Shown piece by piece: positions 19,056 through 31,146 of a stretch of 31,146 nucleotides of DNA. Both the position numbers and the translations under genes were made by a program. Position 1 is the first letter of the stretch; each line of letters begins with the position of its first letter. Below the pieces are notes generated by a model that saw only the letters and a list, made by a program, of their open reading frames with translations, made no database searches and was not told the origin of the DNA. Source of the stretch: an uncultured Planctomycetaceae bacterium (GTDB lineage Bacteria; Planctomycetota; Planctomycetia; Planctomycetales; Planctomycetaceae); the NCBI GenBank assembly GCA_903823635.1, contig CAIJTV010000149.1:1-31146 (forward strand). The letters are read 5' to 3'.

Positions 19056-20372
19056 CTACTCCGGCGGGATCGGGCTACCGTGAGGATCGATTACCGGGGC
19101 CGAGGTTTCCTGTTGCAGACGGTCTCGCAATTCGCGGCCAGTGAAATGTTCCAATTGTTCAGCCTGACCGTGAATTCGATCGACCGCCACGCCACCTTCA
19201 GAAACCAGATACTGTTCCCACAGCCGATGAGAACGAACCAATTCTGCTCCAAGACGGCGACCGGAATCCGTAAGCTGATAGCCGTTCGCTGTGGCGATGA
19301 CGTGGCCTTTTCGTGCATGCTGCTTCATCAGCAGAGAACTCATTAAGCCGCCGGAGAGCAGGGCGGCTCGTAGTTGGTCGATCGACGCCACAACGCCCGA
19401 TTTTCTTTCGTCCATCCGGTACAGCAGAGCAATCAGGTCCTCGGAAAGAATTCTGCGAGACAGCCGCTGGCGACGCAGGATCCTGATCAATACTCCATGC
19501 TGTGGTGCTAACAACGAAACCAGAAAAAAGATTATCCCGGCACACAGAGCCATCATCCCGGATGTGCTGGTACTGCGATAACCAAACCAGTTCGGCACGA
19601 CCAATGCTGATACGTGCCCCAAAGTCGCTGACACGGCTGCGATCAGCGCGCTGACGATGATCATCGATCGCAATCGTTCCGTCAGTAAGAACGCGGTCGC
19701 GGGCGGGACGACAAACATGGCGACGACCAGAATATTTCCGACAGACTCAAAACTGGCGACTGCCGTCACGGCCACAATGATCATCAGGAGATAATGCATG
19801 AGTCTGGCACTGATGCCACAAGTGGTGGCCAGAGCCGGGTCAAACGCGCTGAGTTTCAGCTCTTTGAAGAAAAGTACCACCACGACCAGATTGATGACCG
19901 TCACGGCAGCCAGCACCAACACGACTCGGGGAATTTCTGTTCCGGCTACATCCACCATGTCGAAGGTGGTCGTCTCCAGTGATCCGTAAAGCACGCAACC
20001 GGGATCCAAGTCCACGTGATCGGCGGCCTGAACAATCATCACCAGTCCCAGGGCGAAGAGCGTAGTAAACACGACGCCCATCGAAGCGCCTTCGTCGACT
20101 TCTCCGAAGTTGCGAATCCATTCGGTGAAGACGGCCGTCAACAAGCCGACCACCACCGCCCCGAGAAACATCGGAAGACTCGAACGGCTGCCAGTAATCA
20201 AAAAAGCGACCGCCAGACCGGGGAGAATCGCGTGGCTGATTGCATCGCCCAGCAGACTCATGCGGCGGAGCAGCAGAAAATTTCCTGGCAGCGATGCTGC
20301 AACGGCGCAGAGGATTCCAGCCAGCACGATCCAGCCATCATAGTCCCATGACCAATTGCTGAGCGCGCTCAT
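19056..20372 (-). CDS. troD: Mn/Zn/Fe ABC transporter permease (TroD-like) fused to a C-terminal DtxR/MntR-like domain, 438 aa
   Basis: LRRMSLLGDAISHAILPG, LKLSAFDPALA and ESVGNILVVAMFVVPPATA permease motifs. Tail SEDL...LTDSG...RSHRLWEQYL...AEQLEH. Confidence 0.92.
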   Translation of the reverse strand: MSALSNWSWDYDGWIVLAGILCAVAASLPGNFLLLRRMSLLGDAISHAILPGLAVAFLITGSRSSLPMFLGAVVVGLLTAVFTEWIRNFGEVDEGASMGVVFTTLFALGLVMIVQAADHVDLDPGCVLYGSLETTTFDMVDVAGTEIPRVVLVLAAVTVINLVVVVLFFKELKLSAFDPALATTCGISARLMHYLLMIIVAVTAVASFESVGNILVVAMFVVPPATAFLLTERLRSMIIVSALIAAVSATLGHVSALVVPNWFGYRSTSTSGMMALCAGIIFFLVSLLAPQHGVLIRILRRQRLSRRILSEDLIALLYRMDERKSGVVASIDQLRAALLSGGLMSSLLMKQHARKGHVIATANGYQLTDSGRRLGAELVRSHRLWEQYLVSEGGVAVDRIHGQAEQLEHFTGRELRDRLQQETSAPVIDPHGSPIPPE

Positions 20373-21775
20373 GAGACGTGCTCCGTGGCATCAACCGGAT
20401 GCGGGCTGGGAGCAATCCCCTGGACTCGGCGTTTCTGAAGCAACAATTCTTCCAGTTGAGCGATCAATTCGGGTTCGAGAACGTGCTCGATCGCATCCGC
20501 ACTTTGGTCGACTCGTCCTGGAGCAACATCCGCATGAGTGATCAGATACAGCTCCCAAAGGCGATGCTCATGAACCAGTCGGGATGCTTCAACCAACCCC
20601 GAACTGGTCAGACACAGTTTTTGATCACTGTTGCGAAAGACGAGCCCCTGTCGGCGACATCGTTCGATCTCTTTCAGAAGTCTGTGCGACGACCAGCTTC
20701 GCAGAGTCTGCAGTTCGGAAAAGGGGATTCCAGCTTTGGGGCCGCGCGATTCCTGCAGCTCAAACATCCCGCGAAGCAGATGCTGGTGATCAACGCTGCG
20801 ATTCAGATCACGCCGGCGAAGAGCTCTCACAACCACACCACGTTCCGTCCCAAACATCATGCTGATAAAAAACAGCGAGCTACAGACCAAAACAATCATG
20901 GCGCCGGCGGGAAGGTTGCGAAACAACGCACTCATCGCGGCCCCAAGAAAACCGCCTGCTCCGCCGATCGCTGCTGATATCAATATCATCTGCTTCAGAT
21001 TCTGCGTCCAGAAACGAGAGGCCGCGGCCGGGATGACGAGCAGAGCGATCATCAGCACCAAACCAACAGCCTGCAGTCCGATGATAGTGACGATCACGAC
21101 CAGACCCATGAGCACAAGATCCAGAAGCAGGACCGGGTAACCTCGCGATTTCGCGAAACCCTCATCGAAACAGAGTAATGTCAGTTCCTTAAACAGCACG
21201 CCCATGATGAGCAGCGTCAAAACGCCGGAGCAACCGATCAGAAGCCGGTCGGATTCAATCATCGACGCTGGCTTACCATAAATGAACGACTCCAGCCCGG
21301 CCGAATGTCCGACGGACTGTTGAGCGATCGACAGGATCGCGATCCCGGCGCCGAAAAAGACGCTCAGCACAATTCCCAGAGCGGCATCTTCCTTGAGTCG
21401 GGTCAGGTTGCGAACGTAGAGAATCGCTATGACTCCGGCGATACCACTCAAAGCCGCACCTGTGAGAAGAACCGGCAGTGACTTTTCTGCCAATCCCAGA
21501 CTGGGAGCAATCAGAAACGCCAGGCCAACCCCGGGCAATGTCGCATGGCTCAGAGCATCACCCATGAGTGCTCGGCGGCGGAGCAGGGTGAAGCTGCCAA
21601 CCATGCCGGCGGCCAGCCCCAGCAGCATTGTCCCAAGCATAACGACGCGTGTGTTGTAGTCCTGAAGTAACAACACACGTTGCCACTCCGGCCACGTAGG
21701 CCAGCGAATTGAACGATCCGTCAAAGATGATGCTGCGAATGCGAGAAAGCTATGGAGAGCACAGAGAGTTCTCAC
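20369..21775 (-). CDS. troC: Mn/Zn/Fe ABC transporter permease (TroC-like) fused to a C-terminal DtxR/MntR-like domain, 468 aa
   Basis: LRRRALMGDALSHATLPG, LESFIYG, FKELTLLCFD and AVGLVLMIALLVIPAAAS. Tail LTSSG...HEHRLWELYL...ADAIEH. 4-bp overlaps with both neighbours. Confidence 0.92.
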   Translation of the reverse strand: MRTLCALHSFLAFAASSLTDRSIRWPTWPEWQRVLLLQDYNTRVVMLGTMLLGLAAGMVGSFTLLRRRALMGDALSHATLPGVGLAFLIAPSLGLAEKSLPVLLTGAALSGIAGVIAILYVRNLTRLKEDAALGIVLSVFFGAGIAILSIAQQSVGHSAGLESFIYGKPASMIESDRLLIGCSGVLTLLIMGVLFKELTLLCFDEGFAKSRGYPVLLLDLVLMGLVVIVTIIGLQAVGLVLMIALLVIPAAASRFWTQNLKQMILISAAIGGAGGFLGAAMSALFRNLPAGAMIVLVCSSLFFISMMFGTERGVVVRALRRRDLNRSVDHQHLLRGMFELQESRGPKAGIPFSELQTLRSWSSHRLLKEIERCRRQGLVFRNSDQKLCLTSSGLVEASRLVHEHRLWELYLITHADVAPGRVDQSADAIEHVLEPELIAQLEELLLQKRRVQGIAPSPHPVDATEHVS

Positions 21776-22566
21776 AGCGTCCGCTCCCGACGTCGCATCG
21801 CTTCGGTGGCCTCGTCCAGCAGTGTCAGTCGGCCGCCGTAGGTCTTTTCGAGATTATCTCGAGTGAAAACGGTATCGGTCGGACCACTTGCAACGACTCG
21901 CATGTTCAACAACACGACCGAATCGAAGTATTCCGGGACCGTATGCAGATCATGATGAATCACAATCGCGGTTTTGCCGGCCTGCTTCATCTCCCGCAGA
22001 ATCTGCACGATGGCTTTTTCCGTCGCAGCGTCGACTGCCGCAAATGGTTCGTCCATCAGATACAGGTCCGCATCCTGCACGAGCGCGCGAGCGAGGAATG
22101 TGCGTTGCTGCTGGCCTCCGGATAACTGACTGATTTGTCGATTCGCAAATTCGCCGATTCCGACTCGCTCAAGAGCCTGTTGAGCGGCTTCTCGATGTTT
22201 GCGGCGAACCGGCATGCACCAGCCGATTTTCCCGTAAAGCCCCATCGTCACAACATCCAGCACGCTGACTGGAAAATCCCAGTCCACGCTTTCGCGCTGG
22301 GGAACGTAGCCGACGCGGTGACGACTGCGTTTGTAAGACTGGCCAAAGATCTCGATTCGCCCCGAGGCCCGCGGGACGAGATCCATGATGGCCTTCAGAA
22401 ATGTGCTTTTGCCGGCTCCGTTGGGGCCGATCACGCCGACCAATTGCCCGGGAGAGACATCCAGACCCACGTCCCAGATCACCGGCTTGCGGTACCACGC
22501 GACTGTGAGATCTTTCACAGAAAGTGGCAACGAGTTATTGGGTGGCTGGGTGATCGATCCGCTCAT
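21772..22566 (-). CDS. troB: Metal ABC transporter ATP-binding protein (TroB/MntB-like), 264 aa
   Basis: Walker A GPNGAGKST, signature LSGGQQQR, Walker B YLMDEP, H-loop. Confidence 0.96.
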   Translation of the reverse strand: MSGSITQPPNNSLPLSVKDLTVAWYRKPVIWDVGLDVSPGQLVGVIGPNGAGKSTFLKAIMDLVPRASGRIEIFGQSYKRSRHRVGYVPQRESVDWDFPVSVLDVVTMGLYGKIGWCMPVRRKHREAAQQALERVGIGEFANRQISQLSGGQQQRTFLARALVQDADLYLMDEPFAAVDAATEKAIVQILREMKQAGKTAIVIHHDLHTVPEYFDSVVLLNMRVVASGPTDTVFTRDNLEKTYGGRLTLLDEATEAMRRRERTL

Positions 22567-23579
22567 GGTTGTTCCTTTGGCAACGTCAGCTTGCCGGAAA
22601 GGCCGCGTTCCGGGGCGGTTCCGCCGAGAGCTCTGGCGACCATCGTAATATTGTGGTCGAGCATCCCGAGGTAAGTGCCCTCATAGGTGCCGGCAGCTCC
22701 CATCGCATCAGAGAACAGCTCCCCGCCAATCTTGACGTCGTGTCCGCGAGACTTCGCGCCGTCGATCAGGGCCAGAATGTTCTTTTGAGGCACGCTGCTT
22801 TCCACAAAGACAGCCGGAACCTTTCGCTCAACCAGCAGATCAACCAGCTCATTGATCCGCTGCAACCCGGCTTCGGATTCTGTCGACAGCCCCTGAACGC
22901 CAAGTACTTCCAGATTGTAAGCACGGCCAAAGTAGTTGAACGCATCGTGCGACGTCACGAGCACTCGACTTGATTCTGGAATTGAACCGATCGCGGACAG
23001 TCCATACTCATGCAGGGCCTGCAGAGTTTTTCGATATTCAACAGCGCGAGATTGGAACTCCGTCGCATGGTCGGGCAGCGACTTGCTGAGTCCTTCGGTG
23101 ATCACATCAAGACAATTGGCCCACGCGGCCACATCCATCCAGACATGCGGATCAGGGTGATCGCCGGCGCCGTCGGGCTTCAGGAGAAGATCCTGAGGCA
23201 AATCTCGGGTCATCGCGAAAACCGGCTTTTTCTGCGCGATGCGATTGAAGGTGTCTTCAAGTCGACCTTCCAGCATCAGGCCATTGGTGAAGACCAGATC
23301 GGCGGTCATGATCTGCTGCACGTCATCTCGAGTGGCTTTGTAGAGGTGTGGATCAACCCCCGGACCCATGAGCTGAGTCAGCTCGATCCGTTCGCCACCA
23401 ATCTCTCGAACGACGTCAGCCACCATGCCGACGGTGGCCACAACTTTCAGTCGACCGCCGTTGCTCGACGTACTGTTTTCGCTCGTAGCTGTTGAAGGAT
23501 CGCCGTTCTGGCAACCAGTGAAAAGCACCAGCAAAGTCAGCAAAAACCGGTGCAAAAATGACGAGTTTCGGTTCGCCAT
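22563..23579 (-). CDS. troA: Metal ABC transporter substrate-binding lipoprotein (TroA/MntA-like)
   Basis: Probable start MANRNSS (23579; alternative 23621). Lipobox LFTG-C. Metal-ligand motifs GVDPHLY, DPHVW, TSHDAF, ELFSDAMG. Confidence 0.94.
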   Translation of the reverse strand: MANRNSSFLHRFLLTLLVLFTGCQNGDPSTATSENSTSSNGGRLKVVATVGMVADVVREIGGERIELTQLMGPGVDPHLYKATRDDVQQIMTADLVFTNGLMLEGRLEDTFNRIAQKKPVFAMTRDLPQDLLLKPDGAGDHPDPHVWMDVAAWANCLDVITEGLSKSLPDHATEFQSRAVEYRKTLQALHEYGLSAIGSIPESSRVLVTSHDAFNYFGRAYNLEVLGVQGLSTESEAGLQRINELVDLLVERKVPAVFVESSVPQKNILALIDGAKSRGHDVKIGGELFSDAMGAAGTYEGTYLGMLDHNITMVARALGGTAPERGLSGKLTLPKEQP

Positions 23580-23653
23580 GCGACACGCTACTGCGTCAGC
23601 ACTGAGCAGCCACTTCTGCATAACTCCAGCTTCCTTTTTTCTTCGCAACCGGA

Positions 23654-23710
23654 TGTAGCATAGGCTACAAATCGTTCAGGTCAGTCTATCTGCCGGTCTG
23701 TCTGCGTCAA
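23654..23710 (-). promoter_or_regulatory. Putative tro operon promoter with downstream palindromic operator candidate
   Basis: Minus strand TTGACG (23705-23710), 16-nt spacer, TAGACT (23683-23688). Palindrome TGTAGC-N4-GCTACA at 23654-23669. Confidence 0.45.
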
Positions 23711-28608: not shown

Positions 28609-29706
28609 GTGCTGTCTACTCGGTTTTTTCTCCCGTCTGTGTTTCTGGTTCTCCTCGCTGGCTGCGGAGAAAAGCCTGCTCAGAAGCCTGCACTTCCTCC
28701 GATCAGTGAATCCGAAACGTCTGCGATCAAAGCCCTCAGCGATGCGAAAGCTGTGGTAAAGACGGATGATTCCGGAGCGGCTGTCGATGTGAGCCTTGCG
28801 AAGCTTGAAGTCACGTCCGACATCATCGGTCTGCTGGCCAAGTTGCCTTCGTTGCGAACATTGAATCTTTCTGAGTCTGCCCTCAGCGATGAGACTCTCA
28901 CGGCGCTGGAGAAAGCCGTTCCGAAACTGGCTAGTCTGGATGTACGTGGTTGCGAATTGTCCGATAAATCGGCCGAGTTGCTCGCCCATTTCACCGGCCT
29001 TCGTGCTCTTCGATTCTCCGGAAAGAGCGGCAAAACGACGATCAGTGACGACGGTCTGAAACTTCTGGCTGCCTGCAAGTCGTTGAAGGTTCTGGCGCTG
29101 GACGACCTCTGGATAGGCACTCCCGGCCTCGAAGCTCTTTCCGGACTTTCTGAGCTGGAAGAACTTTACCTTGCCGGCACCGTCGTTGATGACGACTCTT
29201 GCAAGTTGATCGCAAAGTACCCCAGGATTCGAAAACTGCGTCTGGCTCGTACTCAGGTCAGTGACGCCGGTTTGGAAGCGTTGTCTGGCTGCAAAACACT
29301 GGAAGAAATCGATCTGAGCGAAGACTCGCTGATCTCTGATGAGGGGATGGCTCACCTCGCCAAACTGACTAATCTTAAGAAGCTCAATCTTTGGCGAGTT
29401 CAGATTACGGATGCCGGAGCGATTCTGCTGGCTCCTCTGACCAAACTGCTGTGGCTCAATTTGGACAACAGCAAACTGGCGGATGGTGGCCTGGTGTTGC
29501 TGAAGGACATGAAGTCGCTGACATTCCTTCACATAGGCTCAACTCAAGTCACGGAAGCCGGTGCAGCGTCTCTCTTTCACCTGAAGACATTGAAGGATCT
29601 CAAGGTCACTCGTACCGCTTTGGGTGCCAGCGATTCTGCTGTTGCAGAGCTCAAAAAAAACCTGCCTGACACTGTTATTCAAACTGAATATGTTGAGGCT
29701 GAATAA
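28609..29706 (+). CDS. Leucine-rich repeat lipoprotein, 365 aa
   Basis: GTG start, lipobox LLAG-C, and about ten ~24-25-aa repeats of the LxxLxLxxxx(V/I)xDxGxxxL type. Confidence 0.92.
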   Translation: MLSTRFFLPSVFLVLLAGCGEKPAQKPALPPISESETSAIKALSDAKAVVKTDDSGAAVDVSLAKLEVTSDIIGLLAKLPSLRTLNLSESALSDETLTALEKAVPKLASLDVRGCELSDKSAELLAHFTGLRALRFSGKSGKTTISDDGLKLLAACKSLKVLALDDLWIGTPGLEALSGLSELEELYLAGTVVDDDSCKLIAKYPRIRKLRLARTQVSDAGLEALSGCKTLEEIDLSEDSLISDEGMAHLAKLTNLKKLNLWRVQITDAGAILLAPLTKLLWLNLDNSKLADGGLVLLKDMKSLTFLHIGSTQVTEAGAASLFHLKTLKDLKVTRTALGASDSAVAELKKNLPDTVIQTEYVEAE

Positions 29707-30080
29707 TTCGTTTGTGCATATCGAGTCAGTTAAACTGATTCTGGTGTTCTCTGACTCATCTTCTACCTTGATAACGACCCCGACGCCAATTGTTGATAAC
29801 TTGTTGATAACTCTGTGGTGAACCCGGAGGTTACTTGTTTGTTCTGCATATGACTTTGAGAAGCTCGCTTCACAGGTTGTTGATCCTTCTGCTCTTTCCC
29901 CACCGACTTGAAAGAGCTTTTCCACGGATTTCCTTACGGTTACTCACTTTCGTCTGAATCTGTAAAGTGTTTATCAGAAGAAGGTTATGACCTGGGAAAT
30001 GGTAGTTATCAACATTTGTTTGCCGTTCTATTACTGATACTTCTATCTTTTAAATCCTTTTCCAAACACAAACGCAAAGC
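29707..30080. other. Candidate chromosomal replication origin (oriC)
   Basis: Non-coding and AT-rich (18/60 GC at 30001-30060). DnaA-box-like TTATCAACA at 29791-29799(-), 29802-29810(-) and 30006-30014(+); TTCACCACA 29814-29822(-); TTTTCCACG 29918-29926; TTTTCCAAA 30058-30066. Trio-like TTCTATTACTGATACTTCTAT at 30026-30046 after GCCG. Confidence 0.68.
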
Positions 30081-30083
30081 CAC

Positions 30084-30117
30084 AAAAAATCCCGGTTGAT
30101 GTGACTCAACCGGGATT
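30084..30117 (-). terminator. Rho-independent terminator of the Gfo/Idh/MocA gene
   Basis: 12-bp stem AATCCCGGTTGA (30088-30099) / TCAACCGGGATT (30106-30117), with an A run at 30084-30089 (U tract on the minus strand). Confidence 0.88.
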
Positions 30118-30150
30118 CCTTTGGTTCAAGCGATCTTCGCTTAGAACAGA

Positions 30151-30909
30151 TCAGACCACTTCCCAACCTGCTCGATATTCCTTTGTGATCAGCTTGGCAG
30201 CTTCAGGAACATTCTTTGCCACAAGGTTCTCAGCGTCCCACTCAATCGCCTTGCCGGTGCGATAGGCCACGTTGCCCAGCAACACTGTTTCGGTTAAAGC
30301 ACCGGAGTAATCAAAGTTGCAGGTGGTCGGGGAACCGTCCTTGCAGGCTTTGATCCACTCAGCGTGATGTCCGATCGAATTTGGGATCGTCTGAGCTGGT
30401 GGCTTGAAGTCGGCAAACTTGTCAGCCGGGAACAAGCGATAGCGACTGTAGTCGGAGAACAGCGAACCGTTCGAACCGACAAACATGACGCCGTTTGCCG
30501 GAACGGGCTGACCGGCAACCTTCTTCGGAATCAGATCGCCGTCGTACCAGGTCAGCTTGAGAGCTGGCATCGATCCACGGGCCGGGAAGTCGTACTTCAC
30601 GATCAGCCCGAGCGGACAGGTTTCCGGGTGAACTTTTGGGCCTTCCGCTTCGCAACGGACAGGATGTTTGAGATCAAGAGCCCAGAACGGCAGGTCCATG
30701 TAATGGCAGGCCATGTCGCCGAGCGTGCCCTGACCGAAATCCCACCAGCGTCGCCAGTTGGCTGGATGGTACTGACCATCAGCGTACGGACGCTCAGGAG
30801 CAGGACCAAGCCACAGATCCCAGTTCAGGCTGGCAGGTACCGGATCGGCCTTCGCAGGACGTTCGCCGCCGCCCCAGCCCTTCCCAACCCAAACATGAAC
30901 TTCCGTTAC
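30151..30909 (-). CDS. Gfo/Idh/MocA family oxidoreductase, C-terminal part only (5'-truncated)
   Basis: The frame extends upstream of the track ATG: VTEVHVWVGKGWGGGERP...LNWDLWLGPAPERPY...HPANWRRWWDFGQGTLGDMACHYMD. The N-terminal Rossmann domain is absent. In-frame stop at 30916-30918. Confidence 0.9.
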   Translation of the reverse strand, partial: VTEVHVWVGKGWGGGERPAKADPVPASLNWDLWLGPAPERPYADGQYHPANWRRWWDFGQGTLGDMACHYMDLPFWALDLKHPVRCEAEGPKVHPETCPLGLIVKYDFPARGSMPALKLTWYDGDLIPKKVAGQPVPANGVMFVGSNGSLFSDYSRYRLFPADKFADFKPPAQTIPNSIGHHAEWIKACKDGSPTTCNFDYSGALTETVLLGNVAYRTGKAIEWDAENLVAKNVPEAAKLITKEYRAGWEVV

Positions 30910-31146
30910 AACGTCCTAATCCCCCTCAAAAACCCACCCTAAAAAATCAAGCTATAAAACCCACAAATAACAACCAATCCCCTAAAAAGCCTCCTAGGGG
31001 TGGCGGCGGCAATAATAACGGTGGTGGCGGCAATAACAATCCTCCTCCACCCTCACCGTGGTTAGACCCCGAAAACGAACCTCAACCCGACCAATCAGCC
31101 AGTTTTGTCGAATATCTCCGTTGGATGCGTGCTGCCGACTATCCAC
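30906..31146 (+). CDS. cmr6: Fragment resembling the N-terminus of cyanobacterial-type type III-B CRISPR RAMP protein Cmr6 (no start codon, runs off the window)
   Basis: Open frame LQRPNPPQKPTLKNQAIKPTNNNQSPKKPPRGGGGNNNGGGGNNNPPPPSPWLDPENEPQPDQSASFVEYLRWMRAADYP. The SPWL...ASFVEYLRWMR motif is recognised from memory as cyanobacterial Cmr6. A/T-ending codons differ from the host genes. Confidence 0.65.

Follow-up and report, generated by a model that had tools for sequence, protein, structure and literature searches.

The commonest arrangement of a bacterial chromosomal origin of replication (oriC) is one in which the origin lies adjacent to dnaA, dnaN or gidA. In Bacillus subtilis, the incC part of oriC features the basal unwinding system (BUS), which is composed of DnaA-box#6/#7, a GC cluster, the DnaA-trios and an AT-rich 27-mer (PMC6669920, PMC8287927, PMC10721633). 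The rule used to search for BUS modules specifies a DnaA box, a spacer of at most 16 bp (13 bp being the commonest length) and at least three NAN motifs, with a spacer mode of 10–13 bp and a trio consensus of 3'-GAT-5' (PMC8287927). The modules are tabulated in the form 3'-AATAGGTGT...GAT-5', which is the same orientation as at the candidate origin described here, and the co-oriented box pair (#6/#7 in B. subtilis) is predicted in 57% of origins and is not obligatory (PMC8287927). For the Planctomycetes, the DoriC/Ori-Finder oriC calls are located at 5.45 Mb in Rhodopirellula baltica, 1.28 Mb in Pirellula staleyi and 1.40 Mb in Planctomyces brasiliensis (PMC8287927 supplement), and the present locus resembles these computational calls in that several map well away from the start (position 1) of their records. 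In P. brasiliensis, the box TTATCACCA also has an A at position 6 (PMC8287927 supplement). Three of the four BUS modules among these calls have boxes with two mismatches and are given with no conservation evidence, whereas the candidate origin exhibits an invariant box and phase-conserved trios across 24 genomes; neither its genus nor its box is covered there. No experimentally characterised replication origin of a planctomycete was found in the literature searched.

The DNA analysed here (the window, 31,146 nucleotides) is the whole of contig C149 from a metagenome-assembled genome of an uncultured Planctomycetaceae bacterium (assembly G000: 1437 contigs, 6.58 Mb, 54% GC, approximately 90% complete). 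The nearest DnaA genes belong to an uncultured freshwater genus of this family. A preliminary description of the window placed a candidate oriC at 29707–30080. The sequence features presented below point with good confidence to the full gap, 29707–30150, as a BUS-type chromosomal oriC that is unlinked from dnaA. The chromosomal-origin reading put forward in that description is supported by the uniqueness of the box cluster, the conserved BUS geometry, the lack of a rival cluster at dnaA or dnaN, and the skew of a closed relative. As such, the candidate would be an ordinary BUS-type oriC with no new mechanism.

Organization of the intergenic region

The gap between the two convergent genes is 444 bp in length with a GC content of 42%, compared to 54% for the genome, in agreement with the AT-rich gap of about 440 bp in the preliminary description. 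Both of the flanking genes named there, an LRR lipoprotein and an oxidoreductase, were matched by Pfam. The features of the region, in order, are as follows:

28609–29706, plus strand: LRR lipoprotein gene of the left flank (Pfam LRR_4/6/8); outside the origin, a syntenic marker
29791–29812, minus strand: two tandem copies of AGTTATCAACA repeating every 11 bp, the distal pair of DnaA boxes, oriented away from the unwinding module; exact matches
29878–29886, minus strand: weak middle DnaA box GGATCAACA whose position is conserved; 13 of 24 genomes carry a site of at most two mismatches at −128 (±3)
30004–30014, plus strand: proximal DnaA box of the high-affinity type, AGTTATCAACA, pointing at the trios; GTTATCAACA also conserved in the closed sister-genus genome
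30015–30027, plus strand: 13-nt spacer, G/C-rich in its 3' half, which includes GCCG at 30022–30025
30028–30045, plus strand: putative DnaA-trio array CTA TTA CTG ATA CTT CTA (other strand 3'-GAT AAT GAC TAT GAA GAT-5')
30046–30068, no strand assigned: AT-rich tract TCTTTTAAATCCTTTTCCAAAC, the presumed DNA unwinding element, with the lowest mean GC of the aligned loci
30084–30117, minus strand: A-run and 12-bp hairpin (T-run on the minus strand), predicted by terminator scan as the intrinsic terminator of the oxidoreductase gene; right edge of the origin
30151–30911, minus strand: 3' part of a GFO/IDH/MocA-type oxidoreductase gene of the right flank (Pfam GFO_IDH_MocA_C2, E=8.5e-23); outside the origin

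The LRR lipoprotein features a lipobox (LLAGC) in its N-terminal region and its gene stops at 29706. The box locus adjoins this gene in every member of the genus examined and in the sister genus. The oxidoreductase gene converges on the gap with its stop at 30151 and continues on contig C888. The last approximately 235 bp of the window (30911–31146) do not continue this gene, and the alignments of relatives all end near 30913. The first approximately 76 bases of C888 (1–79) are identical to 30835–30910 of the window and are followed by the open N-terminal (Rossmann) part of the oxidoreductase gene. It is probable that C149 ends in a mis-join or follows an alternative assembly path there, and that its true neighbour is C888.

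The hairpin proper occupies 30088–30117 and is preceded by the A-run. Relatives carry a hairpin of another sequence at the same place, also with an A-run before it, and the hairpin is therefore taken to terminate transcription of the convergent oxidoreductase gene. Scans of the gap with Rfam and for tRNAs gave nothing above threshold, and no conserved ORF was identified in the gap after the two stop codons. A canonical parS, sought as a marker of origin proximity, was not found, and the 31-kb window contains no replication, origin-linked or mobile-element genes. Further upstream on the minus strand (19056–23675), the window encodes a ZnuA/ABC-3 metal-uptake operon in which both permeases feature a C-terminal Fe_dep_repr_C domain (the metal-binding domain of iron-dependent repressors), an unusual fusion.

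DnaA boxes

The variant box TTATCAACA differs from the canonical TTATCCACA by one mismatch, an A in place of C at box position 6. It occurs exactly at 29791–29799 and 29802–29810 on the minus strand and at 30006–30014 on the plus strand, the three positions previously given for it. The number of copies expected in the window from dinucleotide shuffles is 0.1, compared to the three observed within 224 bp, and the Poisson chance of three copies within 224 bp anywhere in the genome is approximately 7e-5. The assembly contains 56 copies of TTATCAACA, and at least three exact copies are found together at the candidate origin only. The 11-mer AGTTATCAACA is rarer, with four copies in the 6.58-Mb assembly, three of which are at the candidate origin. 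Stretches of 400 bp with at least three boxes of at most one mismatch from TTATCCACA number two, this gap and one on contig C307 that contains three one-mismatch boxes in sequence of 51–60% GC. Uniqueness of the box cluster refers here to an assembly of 1437 contigs that is approximately 90% complete.

An inverted pair of AGTTATCAACA spaced 200–214 bp apart occurs at most once per genome and is present in 17 of 46 genomes (45 relatives and G000). A single locus, as expected for a chromosomal oriC, is found in G000, in the closed genome G103 described below and in this inverted-pair search of the genus. An exact tandem TGTTGATARNNTGTTGATAA was also tried as a tracer of the locus and rejected as too strict, being found in only 5 of 301 genomes; all five belong to this genus (G000 and four of the 11 sampled). 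No clusters of TTATCAACA were found in four near-complete genomes from other families of the Planctomycetia, and these genomes are therefore unusable as tests. The closed contig of one genome from another Planctomycetia family (G037:C1) carries 21 copies of TTATCAACA, which lie predominantly on the minus strand up to approximately 2.2 Mb and predominantly on the plus strand from there on, a pattern that looks like a replication-oriented oligomer bias.

Three further near-boxes had been listed at 29814, 29918 and 30058. Each is a site two mismatches from TTATCCACA. Of 23 relatives, only 1, 5 and 7, respectively, retain them, and conservation does not extend beyond close relatives, so they are probably not functional. 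The weak middle site at 29878–29886 was absent from that list; a TCAACA core is found at the −128 position in 16 of 24 genomes (positions are numbered from the proximal box). No second co-oriented box is recognisable in the 13-nt spacer.

The predicted unwinding module

The preliminary description had recognised a run of trios following the box at 30006. The stretch was correctly chosen, but the register given, TTC-TAT-TAC from 30026, is shifted by two bases. In the correct register, from 30028, a middle T on the box strand corresponds to a middle A on the other strand. Read in this way, the window contains six consecutive trios with a central A on the strand predicted to be bound, compared to a BUS minimum of three. 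Four of the six fit the stricter form 3'-[G/A]A[T/A]-5', and trios 3 and 4 deviate in most genomes. The trios are directly followed by AT-rich TCTTTTAAATCC... sequence. Judged by sequence only, the locus features a box of at most two mismatches oriented towards the trios, a spacer within the 0–16 bp range and an AT-rich element beyond, as in members of the BUS class; the co-oriented box pair next to the trios is not present.

The module is similar to the B. subtilis BUS in the presence of a box, a short spacer with a G/C-rich end, at least three middle-A trios on the bound strand and an AT tract, and its 13-nt spacer is the modal value of the BUS survey (PMC8287927). The distal boxes are also in the opposite orientation, here approximately 200 bp upstream; the B. 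subtilis distal box works at 132–462 bp and in either orientation. It differs from B. subtilis in having a single consensus box beside the trios rather than a co-oriented pair, a box of TTATCAACA rather than TTATCCACA, a location that is not between dnaA and dnaN, and no second box cluster (incA/B). The R1-DUE region of E. coli provides another likeness, as it reads 5'-TTATCCACA-13 nt-CTA ATA with the same orientation and distance (E. coli sequence verified, 4802 genomes). The E. coli oriC is also not adjacent to dnaA, though the distance of the candidate from dnaA is much larger. Unlike the E. coli oriC, the candidate has no GATC-rich 13-mers, no recognisable IHF or Fis sites and far fewer boxes.

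By analogy with B. subtilis and E. coli, DnaA domain IV would bind the invariant box AGTTATCAACA at 30004–30014. ATP-DnaA would then oligomerise from the box, over the 13-nt spacer, onto the strand 3'-GAT AAT GAC TAT GAA GAT-5' (30028–30045), and the adjoining AT-rich tract (approximately 30046–30068) would be opened for helicase loading. The tandem pair (29791–29812, 204/215 bp upstream) and the weak −128 box probably supply further DnaA, which may be delivered through a loop or a longer oligomer, in the manner of the distal incC boxes in B. subtilis. For this locus, binding by DnaA, unwinding and the contribution of the distal boxes are predictions drawn from these better-studied origins.

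Conservation within the genus

With the box as an anchor, the homologous gap was retrieved from 23 congeneric genomes; these genomes share ancestry and the counts given are not independent. The sequence GTTATCAACA is invariant in all 23. The spacer is 13 nt in 21 of the genomes and 14 nt in the other two, and its mean pairwise identity is 0.38 compared to 0.36 for the 28 nt before the box, both of which are approximately random. The composition of the spacer is uneven, with 66% GC in the last five nt and 31% in the first five. A middle T is found at trios 1 to 6 in 23, 23, 17, 17, 21 and 21 of the 23 genomes, respectively, and at position 7 in only five; trio 2 is NTA in all 23. Comparison of the conserved CTT CTA pair suggests that clades appear to differ by one whole triplet. 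The AT-richest 20-nt window in the 24 aligned loci, with a mean GC of 19%, is located at +43 from the start of the box, right after the trios.

The positions of the distal boxes are also conserved. A box of at most two mismatches is found at −215 in 18 of 24 genomes and at −204 in 19 of 24, where the chance per site is approximately 0.009, and some clades contain an extra box at −66. The approximately 190 bp from the distal pair to the proximal box are 0.53–0.62 identical to the window in most relatives, compared to 0.55 ± 0.02 for shuffled sequence. The DNA between the boxes is at shuffled-level identity, and therefore it is the positions of the boxes that are kept and not the sequence. In the comparison with related genomes that had been suggested for this locus, box, spacer length and trio phase are kept in 23 genomes while the surrounding DNA is not.

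Several relatives show local variants of the distal region. In locus L006 (G019:C376), and in this relative only, approximately nine tandem CACCTTCTT units are found between the LRR stop codon and the distal pair, and the −215/−204 box positions are unchanged by this array. In locus L116 (G315:C251, approximately 2130–2190), five head-to-tail GTTATCAACA-like units of 10–11 bp replace the usual inverted pair. Genomes G015, G004, G008 and G021 are also without the standard distal pair. These departures may be rearranged origins or gaps of assembly.

The DnaA recognition helix

The DnaA of the genus was aligned with domain IV of E. coli DnaA (PDB 1J1V) and with B. subtilis DnaA (8BTG). By E. coli positions, it features the substitutions P423R, T435S, L438V and H439A, and R399, D433 and H434 are kept. 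The residues of DnaA that contact bases are 399, 423, 432–435 and 438–439 (PMC5043019). Among 74 related Planctomycetaceae DnaA loci in which this stretch is readable, 73 carry the motif AYREIG..FGGRDHSTVVAAE, down to approximately 52% identity. These changes of the recognition helix, at base-contacting positions, fit a shifted box preference and do not prove it; an altered recognition helix would account for the A instead of C at box position 6. An invariant box in combination with family-wide changes of the recognition helix agrees with the lineage-preferred box that had been suggested from the window.

Distance from dnaA and replication skew

Within G000, dnaA is on contig C855 and dnaN is on contig C1186, and neither is on C149. 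No boxes were found in the 390 bp upstream of dnaA in this assembly. The flanks of dnaA in 23 relatives, scanned over as much as 10 kb to either side, contain no cluster of TTATCAACA or TTATCCACA-like boxes, and box clusters are likewise absent from loci of approximately 3 kb around dnaN (about 1.5 kb on each side) in five relatives. Neither dnaA nor dnaN was found on the locus-bearing contigs of the genus, which extend up to 84 kb. The candidate origin does not exhibit the dnaA-linked arrangement, in which oriC lies beside dnaA, dnaN or gidA. The preliminary description had called it unlinked from dnaA, which is borne out by the separate contigs in G000 and by a separation of 2.44 Mb in G103; it had also named a better cluster next to dnaA as grounds for rejecting the candidate, and there is none within 10 kb in the 23 relatives.

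The skew of the genome itself is unusable because the assembly is split into 1437 contigs, of which the window is one in its entirety. A search of the family for the module pattern (box, 13 nt, NTNNTA) gave matches in seven of ten genomes of another genus, one of which, G103, is closed in one contig (8,920,478 bp). In named records, the closest matches to its DnaA come from Fuerstiella MAGs. This sister genus is probably Fuerstiella, and G103 may be the type strain of that genus. The syntenic locus of G103 is at 6,481,037–6,481,274 and has the same order of LRR gene, boxes and oxidoreductase gene. Its boxes are located at −228 (+), −215 (−) and 0 (+), the distal pair being head-to-head, and its module is composed of a 13-nt spacer, CTC TTA TTA CTA CTA CTT and an AT tract. 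G103 contains 14 copies of GTTATCAACA, and the syntenic locus is their sole cluster. A group of three one-mismatch boxes at 6.549 Mb was dismissed, as it has 60% GC and overlaps long ORFs. The dnaA gene of G103 is at 52–1500, which is 2.44 Mb from the locus.

Keto skew, (G+T-A-C)/N, was computed for G103 in forty samples of 20 kb taken at even spacing, and the locus was used as the origin. The right replichore is positive in 18 of 21 samples (mean +0.016) and the left replichore is negative in 15 of 19 (mean −0.016), a polarity with a Mann-Whitney p of 1.3e-5. A scan of possible origin positions gave a peak plateau at 6.10–6.45 Mb. Denser samples are negative in 15 of 19 cases between 5.80 and 6.50 Mb and positive in 18 of 18 between 6.50 and 7.36 Mb. 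The minimum of the cumulative skew over a continuous 200 kb is at 6,497,6xx, 16 kb from the locus and not on it, and this offset coincides with a stretch of mostly minus-strand long ORFs that includes three beside the locus. The skew inflection, which was expected to fall at the candidate, is thus found at the homologous locus of G103 to within approximately 16 kb (GC/keto). Replication skew in this family is weak, at about ±0.016, and the weakness of GC skew may explain the difficulty of locating planctomycete origins with it. In G103, the AT skew splits the replichores more clearly than the GC skew and is roughly positive at 2.0–6.1 Mb and negative elsewhere.

Contigs of related genomes in the genus provide a local view. 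All seven of these contigs show a positive step in GC skew at the locus, at the 81st to the 99.7th percentile of background. On these contigs of 37–84 kb the GC-skew signal fades beyond approximately 10 kb, where it is too noisy, and one contig (G012) has a local skew minimum 10–20 kb from the locus.

Alternative explanations

Some properties of the locus argue against oriC. The convergence of the flanking genes is unusual for an origin, there is one consensus box beside the trios, trios 3 and 4 are deviant, and the skew minimum in G103 is 16 kb off. The main alternative, which is considered unlikely, is that the gap is a non-origin DnaA-binding locus, such as a datA-like titration site, a DARS-like reactivation site or a site of the B. 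subtilis DBC type, and that oriC is located elsewhere with boxes that were not recognised. Clusters of high-affinity boxes outside of the origin are well established in E. coli and B. subtilis, and like E. coli datA/DARS and the B. subtilis DnaA-box clusters, the locus consists of few strong boxes in an intergenic gap away from dnaA. With only about four boxes, a head-to-head distal pair in the sister genus, the 16-kb offset of the skew minimum and a position between convergent genes, it could be read in this manner. However, titration and reactivation sites need no module of box, 13 nt, trios and AT tract, and this module is the best conserved part of the locus with its phase kept in 23 genomes. 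The datA, DARS and B. subtilis clusters are without the box-spacer-trio-AT module and off the skew inflection. The candidate departs from a box cluster of that type in having an unwinding module and in its place near the skew inflection, and it was judged on these two properties alone. No other cluster of the variant box is found in the assembly or in the closed G103, none is found near dnaA or dnaN, and in G103 the genome-wide skew polarity switches at the locus and not elsewhere.

The remaining two readings fit even less well than a non-origin DnaA site. It is very unlikely that the TGTTGATAA-like sites are operators of another protein, such as a regulator of a small unannotated transcript within the gap or a nucleoid or partition protein, with the likeness to DnaA boxes and trios being coincidental. 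The box does depart from the canonical DnaA box at position 6, its binding by DnaA is predicted, and 30004–30118 is conserved at the DNA level among close relatives. Nevertheless, the site is at most one mismatch from TTATCCACA, the gap provides no conserved ORF, Rfam match or canonical parS, and its hairpin is assigned as a terminator. The DnaA BUS model specifically predicts the fixed 13-nt spacer, the triplet periodicity and the AT tract (PMC8287927), and this reading would leave unexplained why the locus coincides with the skew switch in G103. It is extremely improbable that the gap is the origin of a plasmid or phage replicon, integrated or once mobile, that uses the host DnaA, as no mobile-element or replication genes are found in the 31-kb window and the locus is syntenic and single-copy across the genus and in the sister genus, where in G103 it lies at the skew switch of the chromosome.

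Significance for the Planctomycetaceae

With the gap taken as a BUS-type oriC, a broader proposal can be made for the family, which is held tentatively. It is possible that DnaA and its origin form a re-tuned pair throughout the Planctomycetaceae, in which DnaA with R423/S435/V438/A439 prefers TTATCAACA, oriC has moved a quarter of the chromosome from dnaA, and a rigid, sequence-free linker of 215 bp joins the distal pair to a single-box module. The proposed link between the four substitutions of the DnaA recognition helix and the C-to-A change at box position 6 is testable.

Planctomycetes exhibit unusual cell division and have few genetic tools. The locus provides a compact and sharply bounded candidate of approximately 300 bp, and a cultured relative with a closed genome exists. 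Origin finders anchored on dnaA and TTATCCACA would search the wrong place in this family. If the broader proposal is true, the family would present a natural case in which DnaA specificity and oriC co-evolved, and the minimal origin, at approximately 300 bp, would be a possible first replicating vector backbone for planctomycetes.
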